Assembly: GCA_964348725.1 (NCBI GenBank)
Contig: CAYGDG010000003.1
Span: forward strand, 30,775-94,774
Length of the DNA stretch: 64,000 bases
Origin: an uncultured Candidatus Saccharibacteria bacterium
GTDB lineage: Bacteria > Patescibacteriota > Minisyncoccia > Phycocordibacterales > UBA9973
Reading direction: 5' to 3'
A program made the translations under genes and the position numbers. The stretch's first letter is position 1. Every line of letters starts with the position of its first letter. Below are positions 3,946 through 63,464 of this stretch, in pieces. The notes beneath the pieces were generated by a model. That model did no database searches. It worked only from the letters and a program-made list of their open reading frames with translations, and had not been told where the DNA came from.

Positions 3946-5162
3946 GGCTCTGAAGCCAAATTATACATCTTATAAGTGGCCGCGTTATTTTTCAGCCAGA
4001 CGAAACATTTATTGTCTTGCGCCCCGATGCTCTGGCCTTCACAGGTGAAGTCGATGGCGAGGCCCGCTTCGTGCCTGGAAGTGCCGGGGTATGCGGTAGG
4101 CGGATTGCATTTCGCGCTCTGGTTATATATGGCAGATTGCCCGCCGCAGTGCTGGGATCGCAAGGATTCCTGCGCTTGCTTTGATCGGTATGTTCCGCCG
4201 GCCAGCTTGATCTGCGGTGTTGTCGCCCATGCCGCATCTATCAATTTTTTCAGGTTGGCCGAAATGCTCTTGCATGCCCAGAAGGTGCCTCCTGAAGTGC
4301 TGATCTGTTCGAATCCTTGAGTGCATAGTCCGTATGCTCCGCTCGGCGGCGTGCCGCTCGAGCTGGACGTCATACCGTAAATTTCACGTTCGTCCCCTAT
4401 CGTGACTGACGCTTCCGGTAGTTTGCCTAGGCCCACGTCGAGCAGGTCCGAATTCAAGGTGTTGAGGATGGCGTATGCGCCGAGAGCCAAGATGAGTCCG
4501 AGAACGGCATTCGTTATCTTGCTCTTCCCGTCCGCTTTTTCAGACACCAGCTCGCTGGTCATGTATTCTATGCCGCCTACCACTATCATGATCATGGCAA
4601 GGGCCGCGCAAATGCCTATGATCACATTTATCATGATGTTGAGGTATGCCCCGAAGCCGGACGCTGTATCCACCACTCCGTCTTTGCCGACTTTTGGAAT
4701 TGGCGCCAGCAATGTATAGTCCGTCTCGGTGTCTGTCCGTGTCACGTCACCGGAGAGTATGGTCGGGTTCGCTAACCCCCCCACCTTCTGCGCTATAGTT
4801 CCTGTTTTATCCTCCACGACTACTGATACACTGTATGTTTTTCCGGAATCCAGAATGCTGCCGGTATTATATTCGGCATGATTACCCTGTATTTTCTTAA
4901 TTACCGACTGCCCGACCTGTTTGTTCGGTTCCCCTTCTTTTTTTTCATATAAAAATACGACCGCATCTGTGTTGTCCGCTGTTCCTTCGGTGTCTATGTT
5001 CACTACCCAAGTCCACTTCTGGGTGGAAAAATTCTGATTCTGAGCGCCCATGGAAAGATTCACTTTTGTCGTAGCTGCGTTCACGGAAGCGGTAAGCGCT
5101 CCGAAAGCGACCAATACGGCCAGAGAAAAAATAACTATTTTTTTGTTCTTAAAAAGTGACAT
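3918..5162 (-). CDS. Fusion protein: secreted N-domain + VirB2/TrbC-like 2-TM hairpin + C-terminal peptidase M15 (D-Ala-D-Ala carboxypeptidase-like cell-wall hydrolase)
   Basis: Signal peptide; hydrophobic hairpin YLNIMINVIIGICAALAMIMIVVGGIEYM-loop-TNAVLGLILALGAYAILNTL; C-terminal SRHEAGLAIDF and EPWHWSY motifs typical of LAS/M15 metallopeptidases. Confidence 0.6.
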   Translation of the reverse strand: MSLFKNKKIVIFSLAVLVAFGALTASVNAATTKVNLSMGAQNQNFSTQKWTWVVNIDTEGTADNTDAVVFLYEKKEGEPNKQVGQSVIKKIQGNHAEYNTGSILDSGKTYSVSVVVEDKTGTIAQKVGGLANPTILSGDVTRTDTETDYTLLAPIPKVGKDGVVDTASGFGAYLNIMINVIIGICAALAMIMIVVGGIEYMTSELVSEKADGKSKITNAVLGLILALGAYAILNTLNSDLLDVGLGKLPEASVTIGDEREIYGMTSSSSGTPPSGAYGLCTQGFEQISTSGGTFWACKSISANLKKLIDAAWATTPQIKLAGGTYRSKQAQESLRSQHCGGQSAIYNQSAKCNPPTAYPGTSRHEAGLAIDFTCEGQSIGAQDNKCFVWLKNNAATYKMYNLASEPWHWSYDGK

Positions 5163-6117
5163 CGATCTGTTTTTCGCGATTTAAAAATAATCTTTTGAGA
5201 TTTTTGACCGTGAGGCGTATGCGGGCACTGCCTTCGCTGCCTGATTCCGGCTTTATTCCTATCTCGTTCTTCACATCGGAAGAAATGGGAGCTCCGTTCA
5301 GATACCAGGACATCTGAAGGTCCGGAGATTCCAGATCCTTCGGCGAAAAGAAATATGGTTCGGCACTGATTATGGCTCCTCCTTCGGGTATGAAAAATCC
5401 GTTCCCGATGGCGCGTGGCAGATGTTGTCCGGAAATAGGATCTTTGGCATAAAAAGTTATATGTGGTTCGGAGGGGCGGACCGTAGTCGTGCCCGTACCG
5501 ATGCCATTGCCTGCGAGGTCAGATACGGTGACATTGATCTCATTCTCAGTTTCCAAATAGGTATTCTTGAAAGTGTATGAGCTCTTGCCAAAACCGGAAA
5601 AAGTGACTGATGTCTTGCCGTCCTGCTCCCAGCGATAAGCGAAGTTCTTGGCGCTGCCGTTCGCCGGTATTGCCACTATCTTGTATGAGCCTTCGGTGGG
5701 AACAAGCGCTTTGCCTTTATAGAAAGGCGGCACATATGAGTCTACTCCTTGCCAGAGCAGATCTATGGCGGCCGGGCTGATGGCGATCGTCTTCTCGATG
5801 AGAGAGCCGTCCGCCGCTTCTATCCGTGCTTGGAGCAGTGTGCGTGACCCTGCGGCTGGGGCGGTAAAGGAAAAACTTTTCTGCCCGAATGCCTCTATCA
5901 TTACCCGTCCGTCGAGCAGCCACGTGATACGCGCGCGATCAAGATCGGAAGCGTATGTGGAGAGTGCTGCGGACACCGATTCGTTCGGCCGCGGATATCT
6001 CGGAGTGAGCGACAAAGAAACATCGCCGCTCTGTATCTGAGCCAAAGCGGAGAGTATAGGCAATGCGAAAAAAGCGATTGCGAGGACCACGACCGACATT
6101 TGTAACTTGGCGTACAT
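5149..6117 (-). CDS. Secreted/anchored protein, three beta-sandwich-like repeats (possible VirB8-position protein)
   Basis: 322 aa; N-terminal hydrophobic segment VVVLAIAFFALPILSALA; position downstream of VirB4 as in Gram-positive T4SS operons. Confidence 0.4.
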   Translation of the reverse strand: MYAKLQMSVVVLAIAFFALPILSALAQIQSGDVSLSLTPRYPRPNESVSAALSTYASDLDRARITWLLDGRVMIEAFGQKSFSFTAPAAGSRTLLQARIEAADGSLIEKTIAISPAAIDLLWQGVDSYVPPFYKGKALVPTEGSYKIVAIPANGSAKNFAYRWEQDGKTSVTFSGFGKSSYTFKNTYLETENEINVTVSDLAGNGIGTGTTTVRPSEPHITFYAKDPISGQHLPRAIGNGFFIPEGGAIISAEPYFFSPKDLESPDLQMSWYLNGAPISSDVKNEIGIKPESGSEGSARIRLTVKNLKRLFLNREKQIDVTF

Positions 6118-17682: not shown

Positions 17683-18063
17683 ATGAGTAAAATAACTAAA
17701 GAAATCAGGTTATTGGCCTGCTCTGCTCTGCTTTTGGGAGGTGTTTTCCTCTTCTCCTACTCTTCTGTTTTCGGTGCTGCGGGCGCGATTGATTTTGGCG
17801 GAAATATGATAACGAGCGTGGTGGAATGCACCTGCAGCACCGGTTCTCAGATCTCTGTTACCGGTTATGGACGCAAAAATTCAAAACATACCGGTACATA
17901 TTTATACACTCCAGGGACGATAGTCATCAAAGGAAAGGTGGAGCCCGGCAAAAAAATTATCGGCCAATACACCTCTGGAGGAGGCCAATGTTTGATAACA
18001 GGAACCCCATGTGAAAAATTGCCTATAACTAAAGGCACGTTTAAGATCATCAGCACTAATTAA
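17683..18063 (+). CDS. Small secreted Cys-containing protein, divergent from T4SS-like operon
   Basis: 126 aa from internal ATG of ORF 17614..18063; N-terminal hydrophobic segment LLACSALLLGGVFLFSYSSVFGAAGA; 6 Cys. Confidence 0.45.
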   Translation: MSKITKEIRLLACSALLLGGVFLFSYSSVFGAAGAIDFGGNMITSVVECTCSTGSQISVTGYGRKNSKHTGTYLYTPGTIVIKGKVEPGKKIIGQYTSGGGQCLITGTPCEKLPITKGTFKIISTN

Positions 18064-18883
18064 CAGTTTTTGTTATTTGTATCCAATCTGTAAGCGTGAG
18101 TTCTTCCGCACGGGTATTTATGGGTATATCAGTGGGTAATTTCGCTATATTTTTCAGGTTTCCAGCCAGTATCTTGCGCTTATGTGCAAAGCCGGCGCGG
18201 ACAATAGTCCAAAATTTTTCTTCATCTACTGCTTTTTGCCCAAAAAGCTTGCGGTTTAGGTCTGTAATAGCTATAACCGCCGAATCCACCTTCGGCGCCG
18301 GGGAAAAATACCGCGCCGGCACTTTCATCACCATCTTCGGATTACCATATGCTTTGACCGATATGGAAAGGATGCTTTCTTTACCATCGTTCGCGATAAT
18401 TCTCTGCGCCACTTCCCTCTGTACGAGCAATACCATGCGCTCTGGCTGATTTTTTTCCGTCAAAAACTTTTTCAATATCGCGCCTGTGATGTTGTACGGT
18501 ATGTTTGCTATTACTTTATACCTCACCCCCTGCCCCCTCTCCTTATCAAGGAGAGGGGAAATTTCAAACTCCAAAATATCTTCATTTTTTAAAATTAATT
18601 TTTTATTTTGTATTTCATTCGCAAATTTTTCCTGCAAGTATTCAAAAAGCTCTGAATCTTTTTCCACGGCGATGACTGTCGCCCCTGCGCCAAGCAATTT
18701 TTCCGTCAGCGCACCCTTACCGGGGCCGATTTCAAGCACAATGTCTTTTGCATTCACTTCACCCGCCGAAATAATCGCGGTCAGCGCCGCTTGCGATTTC
18801 AAGAAATTCTGCCCGAGTGATTTTTTTGCTCTGTGTCCAGGCCCGGCCTGGACAGTAGATTTGGTTTTATATTTTTTCATCAT
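18056..18883 (-). CDS. rsmA: 16S rRNA (adenine1518/1519-N6)-dimethyltransferase RsmA/KsgA, carrying two in-frame palindromic repeat insertions
   Basis: GHRAKKSLGQNFL, VLEIGPGKGALT (SAM site), ANIPYNIT motifs; REP-A at 18834..18854 and hairpin repeat at 18520..18558 lie inside the ORF. Confidence 0.85.
   Translation of the reverse strand: MMKKYKTKSTVQAGPGHRAKKSLGQNFLKSQAALTAIISAGEVNAKDIVLEIGPGKGALTEKLLGAGATVIAVEKDSELFEYLQEKFANEIQNKKLILKNEDILEFEISPLLDKERGQGVRYKVIANIPYNITGAILKKFLTEKNQPERMVLLVQREVAQRIIANDGKESILSISVKAYGNPKMVMKVPARYFSPAPKVDSAVIAITDLNRKLFGQKAVDEEKFWTIVRAGFAHKRKILAGNLKNIAKLPTDIPINTRAEELTLTDWIQITKTVN
18520..18558 (-). repeat. 37-39 bp hairpin repeat family C (RPE-like), copy 1, in-frame inside rsmA
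   Basis: rc = CCCCTCTCCTTGATAAGGAGAGGGGGCAGGGGGTGAGGT; encodes SPLLDKERGQGVRY within KsgA. Confidence 0.7.
18834..18854. repeat. REP-A palindrome copy 1 (TGTCCAGGCCCGGCCTGGACA)
   Basis: Perfect 19-21 bp palindrome; 13 bp downstream of RAYT1 stop, inside rsmA N-terminal codons. Confidence 0.8.
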
Positions 18884-19526
18884 ACGTAAGCCAATTTTCT
18901 ATTTCTGCTTTTACTTCATCCGTATTTTGAAAATAATCCGGAAATGGGCTCTTTTCCAGGATCTTTTTCTCCGAGCGTTCCAGATTCAAATAATCCACAT
19001 AGCTTGAAAAATTAAATTTTTTCAAGTATTCTTTCGCGCCGGAAATATTTTTTAAGCCGGCTTCCTTCCATCGCGGCTCTATTATTTTGAGTGGATTGAG
19101 ATGAATATAAGCGTATAAGTATTTTAAATAATTGTCGTTTTCGACATGCTGCGATTTTGTTTTTCCCTGAAAAAGAGATCCGCTCCGGTCATATTTTTTG
19201 TTGAAATATGTGGAATAACTTGTGAGTAATTTTAAAAGAAACTGGCTTGCATCTTTCTCATTTTTGATCCGTACAAGAATATGAAAATGATTCGGCATTA
19301 GGCAATACGCCCCGATATCTACCAAACTCTCCCCTCTTTCCACTGTCCAGGCCCGGCCTGGACTTGTCTCAGCGTCAGAATATTTCGGCGATTCTTTGCC
19401 GTTGCATAAATAAAGTAGCTTATGAAATCGCGCATAATCTTTTTCATCCTTGAAAATCGTCATTTTATTTGTCCCACGATTATACAGATGATAATACTCC
19501 CCTTGGGCAAAAGGTATTTTCCTCAT
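18867..19526 (-). CDS. REP-associated tyrosine transposase / IS200-like Y1 HUH transposase (RAYT1)
   Basis: 219 aa; GEYYHLYNRG, HUH motif CLMPNHFHILV, catalytic Tyr region LLTSYSTYFNKKYDRSGSLFQG; flanked by REP-A. Confidence 0.75.
   Translation of the reverse strand: MRKIPFAQGEYYHLYNRGTNKMTIFKDEKDYARFHKLLYLCNGKESPKYSDAETSPGRAWTVERGESLVDIGAYCLMPNHFHILVRIKNEKDASQFLLKLLTSYSTYFNKKYDRSGSLFQGKTKSQHVENDNYLKYLYAYIHLNPLKIIEPRWKEAGLKNISGAKEYLKKFNFSSYVDYLNLERSEKKILEKSPFPDYFQNTDEVKAEIENWLTYDEKI
19345..19363. repeat. REP-A palindrome copy 2, in-frame inside RAYT1
   Basis: GTCCAGGCCCGGCCTGGAC; encodes SPGRAWT within the transposase. Confidence 0.8.
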
Positions 19527-19539
19527 CCTCCTATTATAC

Positions 19540-19560
19540 TGTCCAGGCCCGGCCTGGACA
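19540..19560. repeat. REP-A palindrome copy 3
   Basis: TGTCCAGGCCCGGCCTGGACA, 14 bp upstream of RAYT1 start. Confidence 0.8.
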
Positions 19561-19648
19561 AGGGTCTGTGATACTTGACTTTTTATTCTCTTGGGTGTAT
19601 AATCTAGAAAATACTGAAATGAACTACACTCTTTAAAAACACAAAACT

Positions 19649-20299
19649 ATGAAAAAACTTATGATCGTCCTCGCACCTTTGGTGATGTTGCTTGCTTCTT
19701 GCGGTATGTCACAGGAAGAAAAATTGCGGTATTCGGCAAAATCCGGCAATGCCGCGGAGGCGCTCTTTGGCGAATCCGCGATAACGCTTCCCACTGCGCT
19801 CAATCTGAACACAATTTCACCGGTAGATTCTTTCACCGTCCCGGCTCTCAAAAAGAGCTTTGATCCGAAAGAATTGATCAATGAGTCCGGCGGCATCGCG
19901 AACTTCTATATTTTTAGCAGTTTTCAAAAAATTCTGGACGATTTCAAGCCCGTGATGCTCGATACATATCCTATGAACATAAAAATATGGGAGACGGTGA
20001 AGAGCACTACTGATCTTGAAATTTTTGCTCAAATCAGGACCGAGCCGATGAGCGAAACGGAATTTGTGAAACTCTTCGTATATCTTATTTCCAAGCAGCC
20101 AAATGGCGAGCCGGGGAAATTGCTTACGAGCGGATACGCGAATATTTTCCATGTCCGCACAAGCTCCGGAGCGTCGGTCGCTCTCTACGCGGGCTGGGGC
20201 TCCGTCAGCGAGCGCTGGTATGTGCACGCGCGCGGCCTCGATTCTTGGGACGGTGGCGAACGCGTCTTTTCCCGGGGCAATGAGCCCTTGGATTCTTAA
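19649..20299 (+). CDS. Lipoprotein of unknown function
   Basis: 216 aa; lipobox MLLASCG; C-terminal ALYAGWGSVSERWYVHARGLDSWDGGERVFSRG duplicated downstream. Confidence 0.6.
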   Translation: MKKLMIVLAPLVMLLASCGMSQEEKLRYSAKSGNAAEALFGESAITLPTALNLNTISPVDSFTVPALKKSFDPKELINESGGIANFYIFSSFQKILDDFKPVMLDTYPMNIKIWETVKSTTDLEIFAQIRTEPMSETEFVKLFVYLISKQPNGEPGKLLTSGYANIFHVRTSSGASVALYAGWGSVSERWYVHARGLDSWDGGERVFSRGNEPLDS

Positions 20300-20347
20300 A
20301 CTCTTGGATTTTGGTTTTTAAAACTTAGATCCTTAGAAACTTATCAA

Positions 20348-20380
20348 ATGCCCTTGCAATTTTTGCAAGGGCATTTTCTA
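20348..20380 (+). terminator. Rho-independent terminator of lipoprotein gene
   Basis: ATGCCCTTGCAA-TTT-TTGCAAGGGCAT 12-bp stem followed by TTTCT. Confidence 0.7.
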
Positions 20381-20453
20381 TGAAATTTTGTATAATACAG
20401 TACACCAGACCTCATGATCGGACGGTCAAGACTTTCCGGCGGGAACGGCAGAA

Positions 20454-20745
20454 TTGAATTTCGAGAGCTTGGCCGGGTATGCCTTGCCGGGGAGTGGGAT
20501 TCATATTCCGAAACAAAAAATATTTTGCCCGTGGCGGGCGCTGGAGGATTTTAGATCCCAGATAAAATACAGCACGATCCCTGATATAAGTTATGCTTGG
20601 GTCGGCAGTGGCGCAGGTGGCGCTTGCCACACAGCGACGGTCGCTCTCTACGCGAACTGGAACTCCGACAACGAGCACTGGAATGTGAACGCGAACGACC
20701 TCGATTCTTGGAACGGAGGCAAACGCGTCTTTTCCCGATGCAGAT
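20454..20745 (+). pseudogene. Truncated paralog/remnant of lipoprotein gene 3' end (no in-frame stop before running antisense into pcrA)
   Basis: ~125 bp direct repeat of 20160..20290 at 20620..20745 (~80% identity); encodes ATVALYANWNSDNEHWNVNANDLDSWNGGKRVFSRC; preceded by extended -10 TGTATAAT at ~20389..20396. Confidence 0.4.
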
Positions 20746-20784
20746 CATTTTTTCCCGCCAGCAAAAGCCGGCGGGATTTTTTTT

Positions 20785-20803
20785 GTCCAGGCCCGGCCTG
20801 GAC
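20785..20803. repeat. REP-A palindrome copy 4
   Basis: GTCCAGGCCCGGCCTGGAC immediately after CCCGCC...GGCGGG hairpin; overlaps pcrA stop codon by 1 nt. Confidence 0.8.
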
Positions 20804-25434: not shown

Positions 25435-25502
25435 ATATGTTTGATTGTATCAACTAAATACGTTATTTAATAACCTATTTTTACATTATACACCCAAAAG
25501 CT

Positions 25503-26855
25503 TTACTTGTCAATACTTACCTTTCCTTTCTGCGCCAAGAACTTTTCTCGTTCGGCATCCAGATCTCTGACGAAGCCGGCCATGTTTTTTTCCGAGTTTA
25601 TCTTCCCCCAGTCAGCTTTTTTGAACTTGCCGTCTTCTGGCATAATGAAGAAGAGCATGCTCCCCATACCTCGATACTGATCCCAGATGTATTGGATCTG
25701 ATCGTCGAACATGTTTGTGCAGCCCCAGCTGACTCGCCTGTCCTTCGGATCCTTGCTCATCATCGCTTTTTCTCGTCGTTCCTGCTCTGTTTTGTATATG
25801 GAGTGTATGGACATGCGGTATGCTAGTTTATTTTCTTGGCCGGGGAGTGGTTTCAAGTCATAGCCGAAAATACGGAAGAGGTCCTTGCCATATTCTTCGG
25901 CTGTCTCGTGTTCGTTGCGGATAGTGCTGAGCGTGTATGCGCCCGCGCCGGTCTTGTGTCCGTCGTTCTCATCGCCGACCTCCGTGCCGATGCCCACATT
26001 GTCCGCGCGTACAAATCTGCCGTTCCCGTCATATGTCTCCACTTCCGCTTTTTGTTTGTTCAATATCATCACCGTCTTCCCTTTCACAAAAGGCAGATTC
26101 AGGAAATATTCCCGTGCCGCTTCCATGGATTCAGGGTCCATAGCCTGTTGTTCTGTTTTCTGCCTGAAAGCATCTTGTATCTTCTCAGCATTGTATGCCA
26201 GGACGCCTATGCCTATGGCGACCGGTATGCCAATGCGCATGAGATATTTGCGCAGCTCCGGATCCATCGCGCTCTTGTCTTTTACCTTCACGATCTTTTC
26301 CTTGATATATTTTATTTTCGGAGCTTTCACTTTCTTTCCCTTCACGGATACTTCCGGGCCTACGGCATCTTCTATGATCTGCTGTATGTCCGGCGGCATA
26401 CTCTCAGTCATGACTTGTATGCTAAAGTCCGCGAGATCCTGTTCATCAAGTTCTATACCGATTTCTCTGGCCATTTTCTTCACCGCTTGCGCGCGCTTCT
26501 CTCCAGCAGGGAATTTCATCGCTTCGCTTAAAATTTTCTCCGCCACGCTGCCCCAATCTTCTTCAGGGCTGCCCATCTCTTCTTGTATCAGTTCTCGTGT
26601 TTCCATGTGCTGCTCCGGTGAGCCAAGCTGCTCGAGCATGGTGTCCACGATCCTGTTCACTTCATTTTCTTTTTCCTGGCCGGAGAGGTGGCCGGTCATG
26701 CTTTCCGCGCGCAAAAGAAGCTCGGCTGCGAGATTGTTCCAGTCGTATATATTTTCAAAAGTATTCTCTTTGTTTCGTTCCATAAGCATCAAAATTATAC
26801 CATTAAATAAAAAAAATGGTCTTCTTATAAAGAAGACCATAATGATCGCAAACAT
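25503..26855 (-). CDS. Hypothetical membrane-anchored protein; weak L,D-transpeptidase-like SWGC motif near C-terminus
   Basis: 450 aa; N-terminal TM; ...RRVSWGCTNMFDDQIQYIW (low-confidence similarity to YkuD SHGCIR motif). Confidence 0.45.
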   Translation of the reverse strand: MFAIIMVFFIRRPFFLFNGIILMLMERNKENTFENIYDWNNLAAELLLRAESMTGHLSGQEKENEVNRIVDTMLEQLGSPEQHMETRELIQEEMGSPEEDWGSVAEKILSEAMKFPAGEKRAQAVKKMAREIGIELDEQDLADFSIQVMTESMPPDIQQIIEDAVGPEVSVKGKKVKAPKIKYIKEKIVKVKDKSAMDPELRKYLMRIGIPVAIGIGVLAYNAEKIQDAFRQKTEQQAMDPESMEAAREYFLNLPFVKGKTVMILNKQKAEVETYDGNGRFVRADNVGIGTEVGDENDGHKTGAGAYTLSTIRNEHETAEEYGKDLFRIFGYDLKPLPGQENKLAYRMSIHSIYKTEQERREKAMMSKDPKDRRVSWGCTNMFDDQIQYIWDQYRGMGSMLFFIMPEDGKFKKADWGKINSEKNMAGFVRDLDAEREKFLAQKGKVSIDK

Positions 26856-41177: not shown

Positions 41178-41214
41178 CCCCCTCTGCTTAATAAGGAGAG
41201 GGTCGGGGTGAGGT
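41178..41214 (+). repeat. Hairpin repeat family C copy 2 (intergenic, after rpsO)
   Basis: CCCCCTCTGCTTAATAAGGAGAGGGTCGGGGTGAGGT. Confidence 0.7.
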
Positions 41215-45202: not shown

Positions 45203-45219
45203 AAAATTGAAATAAAAAA

Positions 45220-45247
45220 ATCCCCACATGTCCGACATGTGGGGATT
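45220..45247. terminator. Terminator hairpin (strong for minus-strand gene 45270..45686, possibly bidirectional)
   Basis: AATCCCCACATGT-CCG-ACATGTGGGGATT; A-run on plus side upstream. Confidence 0.6.
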
Positions 45248-46710: not shown

Positions 46711-46731
46711 GTTAGCGCTTTAGACCCTAAC
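46711..46731 (+). repeat. REP-B copy 1 (GTTAGCGCTTTAGACCCTAAC)
   Basis: 11 bp upstream of RAYT2 start; exact reverse complement at 47401..47421. Confidence 0.75.
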
Positions 46732-46742
46732 TTATATATATT

Positions 46743-47405
46743 ATGCGCAAAGAACCTTTAATAACAGGAGAGTATTATCACATTTATAATAGAGGCGTTG
46801 ATAAAAGAGATATTTTCAACGATCTCCACGACTCGGAGCGTTTCAAGGAAAGCATCAAAGAATTCAATCAAGTAGATATAGTGGGCAGCCTGCAACGACA
46901 GCATAAAGTAGTTAGGGCTTTAGACCCTAACTATTGCAAAAAACCGCTCGTCGCCATCGTTTGTTTTTGTGTTAATCCTAACCATTTCCATTTTGTTCTA
47001 AAACAGTTGGTTGATGGCGGAATAGCAAAATTCATGCAGAAACTTCTTGGCGGGTATACTTCTTTTTTTAATCAGAAACATCAGCGGTCAGGGTCTTTAT
47101 TTCAAGGAACATTTAAATCAAAATTATTGAGCGATGAAGGTTATTTCAGAAAGATTTTCGCTTATGTTAATCAGAATTATTTAGTGCACTCCATACCGGC
47201 AGAGAAATTGAAATTTATTTTTGCCAGCGATGCGGAATACAGCAAAGGGAATTTTGATTTTATTGACGCTCAAGAGGGGAAAGAGATGCTTGAAGTTTTT
47301 GATGGGGAAGCCGGTTTTAAAAATCATTGCAAAGAAATCATAAGTCTCATCAGGGAAGAGCGAGGCGCGCCTTCCTTGAATGAACCGGATGAACTGCCTT
47401 GTTAG
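46743..47405 (+). CDS. REP-associated tyrosine transposase / IS200-like Y1 HUH transposase (RAYT2)
   Basis: 220 aa; GEYYHIYNRG, HUH CVNPNHFHFVL, LLGGYTSFFNQKHQRSGSLFQG; paralog of 18867..19526. Confidence 0.75.
   Translation: MRKEPLITGEYYHIYNRGVDKRDIFNDLHDSERFKESIKEFNQVDIVGSLQRQHKVVRALDPNYCKKPLVAIVCFCVNPNHFHFVLKQLVDGGIAKFMQKLLGGYTSFFNQKHQRSGSLFQGTFKSKLLSDEGYFRKIFAYVNQNYLVHSIPAEKLKFIFASDAEYSKGNFDFIDAQEGKEMLEVFDGEAGFKNHCKEIISLIREERGAPSLNEPDELPC
46911..46931 (+). repeat. REP-B copy 2, in-frame inside RAYT2 (GTTAGGGCTTTAGACCCTAAC)
   Basis: 7-bp arms GTTAGGG/CCCTAAC; encodes VVRALDPNY. Confidence 0.75.
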
Positions 47406-47421
47406 GGTCTAAAGCGCTAAC
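47401..47421 (-). repeat. REP-B copy 3 (inverted), overlaps RAYT2 stop
   Basis: GTTAGGGTCTAAAGCGCTAAC. Confidence 0.75.
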
Positions 47422-63428: not shown

Positions 63429-63464
63429 CCCCTCTCCTTTTCAGGAGAGGGGTAGGGGTGAGGT
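63429..63464 (+). repeat. Hairpin repeat family C copy 3 (intergenic)
   Basis: CCCCTCTCCTTTTCAGGAGAGGGGTAGGGGTGAGGT. Confidence 0.7.

Follow-up and report, generated by a model that had tools for sequence, protein, structure and literature searches.

The 64,000-nt stretch of an uncultured Candidatus Saccharibacteria bacterium analyzed here (contig CAYGDG010000003.1 of assembly GCA_964348725.1, positions 30,775 to 94,774; hereafter the window, GC = 46%) contains a gene for a Y1 HUH tyrosine-transposase-like protein that is accompanied by four exact copies of a 19-nt palindrome, GTCCAGGCCCGGCCTGGAC. The organisms in which its homologs occur also mark the genome as one of the Patescibacteria/CPR type. 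An earlier note, made from the letters of the sequence alone, had reported four identical palindromes within 2 kb and had read them as repetitive extragenic palindromic (REP) elements mobilized by a REP-associated tyrosine transposase (RAYT), or else as a 0.7-kb IS200-like element. The four exact 19-mers were confirmed, and copies 1 and 3 reach 21 nt as perfect palindromes (18834-18854 and 19540-19560). The reported distances of these two from the transposase open reading frame (ORF), 13 nt from the stop and 14 nt from the start, were also correct. Searching with up to 3 mismatches allowed returned no further match to the 19-mer in the window, and the number expected by chance was 0 (100 shuffles). 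The gene and its palindromes are:

18867 to 19526, minus strand: Y1 HUH tyrosine-transposase-like gene, 219 aa, motifs NHFH, FQ, YIHLNP and SS.
19541 to 19559, no strand assigned: copy 3 (5' flank), 14 nt upstream of the Y1 ATG.
19345 to 19363, no strand assigned: copy 2 (internal), in frame at Y1 codons 55-61 (S-P-G-R-A-W-T).
18835 to 18853, no strand assigned: copy 1 (3' flank), 13 nt past the Y1 stop and within ksgA codons 11-17 (VQAGPGH).
20785 to 20803, no strand assigned: copy 4 (distal), its last base overlapping the uvrD stop codon, after the terminator hairpin that closes a diversity-generating retroelement (DGR) template repeat.

The span from hairpin to hairpin across the Y1 gene is 725 bp, and 1.26 kb separate the gene from copy 4. 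Folded as single-stranded DNA (ssDNA), each copy had an energy of -8.8 to -9.9 kcal/mol (z from -3.1 to -4.7). The copies are thus hairpin-forming palindromes in the sense used for REPs, both by this fold and by co-variation that preserves the stem. A short foot adjoins the stem on one side only, AGT (3') or ACT (5'), in 15/31 copies versus 2.5% expected. The AGT at 18854-18856 places copy 1 in inverted orientation relative to the 5' copy, and the AGT/ACT feet turn copies 1 and 3 into an inverted pair with feet toward the gene. The inverted arms (18834-18864 and 19530-19560) extend over 31 nt with 87% complementarity and constitute flanking terminal inverted repeats (TIRs) like those that characterize TIRtrons. 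GTAG or GTGG, the GT[AG]G guide tetranucleotide of REPs, never occurred at the foot among the 31 copies. The anatomy is that of a REP foot but without its sequence. The GGGGWSAS TIR consensus was absent from both cognate repeats, namely the 19-mer and the 21-mer of a second Y1 paralog described below, and was found in the window only in an unrelated repeat family, D4. No REPIN-type inverted REP pair was present in the window.

The earlier identification of the ORF as a Y1 HUH protein held. Its match to Pfam PF01797 (Y1_Tnp) scored 31.9 bits against a gathering score of 23, and the residues H80, F81, H82, Y140, and N144-P145 were invariant in an alignment of 24 homologs with 50-71% identity. 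The AlphaFold (AF2) model had a pLDDT of 91, and a Foldseek search against solved structures returned the E. coli RAYT-REP complex as the best match (4ER8, E = 1.3e-6), followed by the TnpA structures of IS608 and ISDra2 (2A6M, 2XM3). A profile search against PDB sequences had yielded spurious matches only, and a fold search was required instead. The motifs NHFH (79-82), F119-Q120, YIHLNP (140-145), and S174-S175 were all conserved. This set matches that listed for TnpA-Y1 subclass 2.1 (Bertels Group 1, TIRYT) in the table of Quentin et al. 2018, which makes the protein a putative member by motif matching, not by their HMMs. The motifs were unlike those of IS200 (YxxxQ) and unlike those of the REP-associated subclasses 2.2, 2.4, and 2.5. 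The RAYT equivalog model NF047646 (REP_Tyr_transpos) scored 40.2 bits and did not reach its cutoff of 80, which leaves membership in the RAYT equivalog unsupported.

In both the alignment and the AF2 model, copy 2 encodes a loop that connects helix A to strand 2 and precedes the HUH motif. The peptide SPGRAWT is kept in homologs as SPGRTWT, SPGKAWT, TPGRTWS, SPYPVWT, and like forms, and the underlying codons (aGT CCA GGC nnn GCC TGG ACa) are self-complementary, with the amino-acid variants tracking compensatory changes in the DNA. The loop residues undergo non-conservative changes (SPGRAWT to SPYPVWT to TPGRTWS) and the palindrome nevertheless persists, which places the constraint on the nucleic acid. 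An origin of the internal copy as an insertion was rejected, since the homologous proteins are equal in length and the encoded peptide is conserved. One palindrome does lie inside the gene as had been noted, but it is not just another REP: as part of the architecture it is conserved, keeps the reading frame, and co-varies with the flank copies.

The same three sites were occupied in orthologs. Loci L124, L126, L127, and L129 each had their own variant, placed 12-20 nt upstream of the start codon, again in frame within the gene (codons 53-57), and a third time 3-18 nt past the stop. Stem variants (GGCC/GGCC, GGTC/GACC, ATACC/GGTAT, and GGGC/GACC) were identical at the three sites within a genome and differed between genomes:

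Window: GTCCAGGCC-G-GGCCTGGAC.
L126: GTCCAGGTC-G-GACCTGGAC.
L127: nTCCAGGTC-G-GACCTGGAn.
L124 and L120: GTCCATACC-C-GGTATGGAC.
L129: GTCCAGGGCGGACCTGGAC.
Hairpin variant B: GTCCATACCCGGTATGGAC; hairpin variant C: GTCCAGGTCGGACCTGGAC.

At L122 the 5' copy lay 38 nt before the start and the flanks were exact inverted copies of each other, with an internal copy that had drifted by 3 mismatches. Over 22 copies of the syntenic clade, which was picked by synteny and not by palindrome content and in which copies within one genome are not independent, 95.5% of cells were paired and 4/9 pairs had changed on both sides in a compensatory manner. None of 500 shuffles reached the observed values, and slid registers gave 10-48%. 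We regard this co-variation among the aligned copies as strong evidence, though it has no formal probability attached.

The arrangement extended well beyond these orthologs. A protein search returned >7,800 matches to the Y1 family, and at least 595 Y1 loci were found among GTDB species representatives, where the loci retained were those of Patescibacteria. An assembly artefact was rejected, since the same architecture appeared in many independent assemblies (NCBI, ENA, JGI, and Logan). In a set of 80 loci at greater distance (41-54% identity), the 120 nt upstream and the stop region had an exact word of ≥12 nt in common in 66/79 loci, compared with 1/72 for a control region 1 kb away. These flank-shared words were almost always locus-specific hairpins, often with an AGG...CCT core. 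The word was also in frame at codons 52-65 (≤20% mismatch) in 13/63 loci (~20%), versus 0-2/63 in three control windows of the same gene. The window itself contained a second example:

46743 to 47405, plus strand: second Y1 paralog, 39% identical to the first, Pfam Y1_Tnp 34.3 bits.
46711 to 46731, plus strand: 21-mer GTTAGCGCTTTAGACCCTAAC, before the paralog's start.
46911 to 46931, plus strand: 21-mer with 1 mismatch, in frame at codons 57-63.
47401 to 47421, minus strand: 21-mer over the stop codon, forming an exact 21-nt inverted pair with the upstream copy.

The 21-mer is weakly self-complementary and unrelated to the 19-mer. One genome thus appears, from its sequence, to hold two orthogonal gene-site pairs.

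The position of the first Y1 gene was fixed relative to its neighbors. Immediately downstream lies a housekeeping gene:

18056 to 18883, minus strand: ksgA/rsmA (rRNA adenine dimethylase), Pfam RrnaAD 182 bits and supported by a KsgA alignment, its start overlapping the Y1 stop by 17 nt.

Within the window, ksgA carries copy 1 in frame and also, in frame, a D4 palindrome (18534-18558). The gene order DUF5663-uvrD-Y1-ksgA was common to five orthologous loci (L122, L124, L126, L127, and L129), in which the Y1 stop likewise overlaps the ksgA start, and the uvrD-Y1-ksgA position was kept across Y1 protein identities of 45-71%. These observations bear directly on the proposal that the gene is an active 0.7-kb IS200-like insertion sequence with subterminal hairpins as its transposon ends. 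A single Y1 ORF within 725 bp, hairpins 13-14 nt from both ORF ends, and the near-universal presence of flanking hairpins in the family all resemble such an element, but it would not be expected to hold a syntenic position over this range of divergence and overlap the start of ksgA, nor to place its 3' hairpin within the ksgA reading frame. The only paralog in the same genome is 39% identical, the tyrosine motif is YxxxNP (class 2) and not YxxxQ, and the flanking copies are inverted by their feet, whereas IS200/IS605 ends share one strand. The mobile-element claim was not supported on these grounds, and we consider an insertion sequence very improbable.

The best promoter-like site for the Y1 gene was TTGTCC-17-TATAAT (19561..19533, minus strand), followed by N6 and the ATG, and copy 3 is exactly its 17-nt spacer. 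A -10-like hexamer (TAnwwT) lay 4-8 nt upstream of the ATG in 42/80 family genes, compared with 5.1% of all ATG trinucleotides in the same loci, and a Shine-Dalgarno-like sequence was found in 0/80 family genes. This TATAAT-N6-ATG geometry and the lack of a Shine-Dalgarno sequence suggest that Y1-family genes may be expressed from leaderless mRNA, in which case the 5' hairpin would belong to the promoter DNA and be absent from the transcript. Such a placement favors a role at the DNA level and makes autoregulation plausible. It also weakens the idea that the palindromes act in RNA, as terminators, attenuators, or stabilizers of the transcript. Stable, GC-rich hairpins whose internal and 3' copies are part of the operon transcript would suit such a role, and Di Nocera et al. 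hold that many REPs act as RNA. Yet the 5' copy precedes the probable start of transcription, the coding strand shows no T-run after any of the copies, no copy was called as a terminator, and generic RNA hairpins would need neither identity at three sites nor concerted switching. We give an RNA-level function hardly any credence.

When JGI metagenomes were searched for exact matches, the 19-mer turned up unchanged in syntenic relatives of low GC with KsgA 58-65% and Y1 57-71% identical to the window proteins, and the persistence of an identical 19-mer despite such divergence indicates strong site conservation. The ksgA genes of these relatives contained 3-4 in-frame copies (VQAGPGH/Q/R). Another housekeeping gene, gatB (Pfam GatB_N, GatB_Yqey), carried two 19-mers in tandem and in frame (period 23 nt) in L091 (499-540), L097 (12225-12266), and L115 (6882-6923). 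The doublet corresponds to an insertion of ~15 aa (HVQARPGQMSRPGLD) in a loop, relative to GatB of other Patescibacteria, and the contigs carrying it were without any Y1 gene. Relatives thus have tandem doublets with the 23-nt period at two places, gatB and the ksgA 5' end; for a near-perfect palindrome their orientation is not definable. Since the 19-mer is found elsewhere in relatives, including in gatB far from any Y1 gene, some copying or mobilization happened. L120 was informative in this respect. Its ksgA (380-1300) held two variants at once, with the old GTCCAGGCCSGGCCTGGAC at two sites, while the new GTCCATACCSGGTATGGAC was at the Y1 internal copy, in the doublet just downstream of Y1 (the ksgA 5' end), and at one ksgA C-terminal site. 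Old and new variants side by side point to replacement at pre-existing sites. One ksgA loop carried the 19-mer palindrome in relatives and a palindrome of a different family in the window. Single 19-mer matches were also found in high-GC metagenome contigs (GC 0.52-0.78) without Y1, ksgA, or the other neighbor genes tested. These are presumed to be chance matches.

Copies in relatives away from the gene are one of several features shared with canonical REP/BIME-RAYT systems, in which the RAYT would have spread hundreds of extragenic REPs over the genome, this palindrome among them. Hairpins flank a RAYT-like gene, the RAYT-REP complex is the best fold match, and lineage-specific hairpin variants co-evolve with the gene. 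The numbers speak otherwise. The four copies in the window are confined to 2 kb, and the remaining 62 kb has none, not even with 3 mismatches allowed. One copy in the 64-kb window was >300 nt from the gene, and family-wide there were 8 such far copies in 368 kb (~1 per 46 kb), whereas a REP system requires ~100 or more dispersed extragenic copies per genome. This count used the flank-shared word as probe; an earlier probe, the best perfect upstream hairpin, caught the terminators of neighbors and was unreliable. Many copies are also intragenic (copies 1 and 2 in the window), the GT[AG]G foot is lacking, NF047646 stays at half its cutoff, and the motifs are those of subclass 2.1 and not of 2.2, 2.4, or 2.5. 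The REP-like set-up described in the earlier note therefore stands insofar as cognate hairpins bracket the gene in the manner of a REPtron and 4ER8 is the closest fold, but the REP/BIME canon does not apply, and a canonical REP system is in our judgement improbable.

A purely regulatory reading deserves similar attention. Here the palindrome would be a dyad-symmetric double-stranded DNA (dsDNA) operator for a dimeric regulator, Y1 or another protein, that controls the Y1-ksgA operon without any mobilization. The exact coincidence of the 5' copy with the promoter spacer fits such an operator, as does the clustering of copies in and around one operon, and palindromy is what a dimer operator needs; the lack of mobility polymorphism between strains (below) agrees with it too. 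It leaves unexplained the in-frame gatB doublet on contigs without the operon, the uvrD-side copy 1.26 kb away, and the ksgA sites of L120 at which a new variant has taken the place of an old one. In addition, the paralog-2 21-mer is weakly self-complementary, and all solved relatives of the protein are ssDNA hairpin nucleases. We regard an operator without mobilization as unlikely.

The explanation we favor, and consider probable, is that the Y1 HUH gene is a domesticated, vertically inherited RAYT/TIRYT-like gene within a three-site unit resembling a REPtron or TIRtron, whose enzyme occasionally copies or replaces its hairpin, mostly in cis and at existing hairpins. The three sites of the unit would be the promoter, an in-frame surface loop of the protein, and a position at or just past the stop codon. 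We infer that the Y1 protein recognizes a lineage-specific ssDNA hairpin, about half the copies of which have the asymmetric AGT/ACT foot, and that it cuts and rejoins DNA there, by analogy to solved Y1 enzymes. Occasional copying or replacement of the ~19-23-nt element would prefer the vicinity of its own gene and places that already have a hairpin, and the survivors would be only those insertions that keep the frame in tolerant loops. With the 5' copy between the -35 and -10 of a leaderless promoter, the protein may plausibly repress its own transcription and that of ksgA. Such copying and replacement would explain why the three sites are alike within a genome yet switch jointly between genomes. 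It would also explain the doublets, the in-frame copies amassing in ksgA, and the rare copies in distant genes such as gatB.

Several observations weigh against this explanation. Among the near-identical strains L088, L112, L107, and L111 no copy was gained or lost, and the only differences were 3 substitutions in the middle of one copy, so that presence/absence polymorphism gives no sign of recent mobility. Copies are very few, most of them ≤1.3 kb from the gene, a pattern that a purely regulatory role could also produce. A dyad-symmetric dsDNA operator would keep self-complementarity just as well, and co-variation alone is accordingly no proof of an ssDNA hairpin. The drifted internal copy of L122, with exact flanks, indicates that the internal site is dispensable at least sometimes. 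A fixed loop orientation, as in the strand-specific IS200/IS605 ends, was not seen among the copies and varied between loci. Lastly, the subclass 2.1 assignment may be imperfect, or this branch of the Candidate Phyla Radiation (CPR) may be atypical, given that Quentin et al. saw no REP-like sequences in that subclass.

A more tentative proposal, which we think doubtful, gives the in-frame internal copy a function of its own. It could be a protected master copy that regenerates the flanks and locks enzyme and site together through specificity switches, and it could also act as a self-limiting switch, with cleavage between the internal copy and a flank deleting half the gene. Related to this, two hairpins might mobilize cargo between them, which here would be the DGR module.

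Parts of this arrangement have precedents. TIRtrons and REP-decorated ORFs were described by Di Nocera et al. 2013 (PMC3733652). TIRtron genes (PMC3733652; Quentin et al. 2018, PMC6006769) share the motifs NH[YF]H, FQ, and Y[IV]HLNP, the C-terminal SS tail, and a length of about 220-240 aa. They are also single or low-copy genes, bracketed by inverted repeats that can be self-complementary, can overlap the gene ends, and form small repeat families. Most TIRYT TIRs carry GGGGWSAS, however, which the repeats here do not, and a third in-frame copy at a fixed internal loop is not described there. Quentin et al. 2018 (PMC6006769) found no REP-like sequences in subclass 2.1, in contrast to the hairpins at 66/79 loci of the Patescibacteria branch examined here. 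CPR members and a fixed arrangement of three sites go unmentioned both there and in Bertels et al. 2017. A full-text literature search for a three-site Y1-hairpin phenomenon in CPR returned nothing relevant, subscription-only papers being outside its reach.

The REPtron of E. coli (TnpA_REP, 4ER8, with its REP/BIME and REPIN repeats) is alike in fold, in inverted cognate hairpins, in a vertically inherited single-copy gene, in lineage-specific co-evolution of gene and hairpin, and in having a short asymmetric foot beside the stem. The system here differs in the sequence of that foot, AGT/ACT in about half of the copies in place of GT[AG]G, in its very short perfect palindromes (15-29 nt), in a very low and clustered copy number with many intragenic copies, and in a protein below the NCBIfam cutoff. 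Subclass 2.4 RAYTs of Cyanobacteria and Bacteroidetes (Quentin et al. 2018) likewise have a cognate REP in frame in tnpA_REP, in a peripheral loop. In contrast, the copy here precedes the HuH motif, occupies one fixed loop (codons 52-65), and belongs to a different subclass, and the layout recurs, with an unrelated sequence, in the paralog of 39% identity. Rickettsia palindromic elements and REP-decorated ORFs are similar in that short palindromes sit in frame in the loops of housekeeping proteins, as in ksgA and gatB here, but RPE-1 is about 100-150 nt, versus elements of 19-23 nt tied to an adjacent cognate Y1 gene. IS200/IS605 TnpA shares the HUH/Y1 fold, hairpins near both gene ends, and a unit of ~0.7 kb; the differences are YxxxNP in place of YxxxQ, the fixed position, the lack of near-identical copies, and a hairpin orientation that is not strand-consistent. 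Overall, the locus belongs with the known systems of the REP/RAYT and TIRtron kind, as an unusual variant.

Domesticated HUH genes of the RAYT/TIRYT type are widespread. The Patescibacteria branch offers an unusually clean natural experiment, with tiny perfect palindromes, three fixed sites per gene, and several specificity switches among syntenic orthologs. Two orthogonal gene-site pairs in one genome and such short sites make enzyme-site co-evolution and cross-specificity testable with short oligonucleotides. The streamlined genomes of CPR bacteria evidently tolerate palindrome insertions in essential genes (ksgA and gatB). For annotation, the recurring VQAGPGH- and SPGRAWT-like peptides should be recognized as repeat-encoded.

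The region between copies 3 and 4 is occupied exactly by a 1.2-kb DGR module:

19649 to 20299, plus strand: DGR target gene, a lipoprotein-like ORF of 216 aa with a variable repeat (VR, 20170-20275) at its 3' end.
20633 to 20738, plus strand: DGR template repeat (TR), a 106-nt block matching the VR.

Copy 4 had been placed 1.2 kb from the transposase, beside a gene fragment. The distance (1.26 kb) and the similarity (20633-20742 versus 20170-20279) were real, but the fragment proved to be a DGR template repeat rather than the remnant of a gene copy. All TR/VR mismatches (17/17) were at TR adenines, involving 17 of the 27 adenines (P of about 4e-13). The TR is followed by a terminator-like hairpin (20753-20776) and a T run. 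A regular-expression test for an ORF of at least 150 aa with an RT-like [YF]xDD context found no DGR reverse transcriptase in the 64 kb, and the TR/VR pair is an orphan within the window.

The module was missing at the uvrD-Y1 intergenic site of L065, L122, L124, and L129, and it may have been inserted between a pre-existing pair of copies. L129 has two upstream copies, 46 nt apart, so the module may simply have entered such a pair. Mobilization of the module by the Y1 system is speculative. At the same intergenic position, L126 had an unrelated 178-aa ORF on the opposite strand (4851-5387). This ORF was rejected as a counterpart of the DGR target gene, since tblastn with the window target protein gave no match and there was no obvious resemblance. 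The uvrD-Y1 intergenic site seems prone to the acquisition of cargo.

A promoter-like block, TTGAC-N-TGGGTGTATAAT, precedes the DGR target gene at 19575-19603 and recurs in inverted orientation at 25478-25513, with the 19575-19603 site having 11/12 matches to the sigma-70 consensus. At 45219-45247 the window contains a 29-nt perfect palindrome, AATCCCCACATGTCCGACATGTGGGGATT, similar to the hairpin flanking the Y1 gene in L020, an unrelated genome (TTTCCCACATGTCGGACATGTGGGAA). This palindrome could be a terminator, or else a stray hairpin cognate to some Y1 gene in another part of the genome. The D4 family of palindromes, CCCCTCTCC-loop-GGAGAGGGG followed by GGGGTGAGG, occurs at 18521-18560, 41179-41214, and 63429-63464. 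Its tail fits the GGGGWSAS consensus of TIRYT terminal repeats, and no Y1 gene adjoins the D4 copies in the window. The D4 copy in ksgA encodes ISPLLDKERGQGVR and sits in the ksgA loop that carries the 19-mer in relatives.

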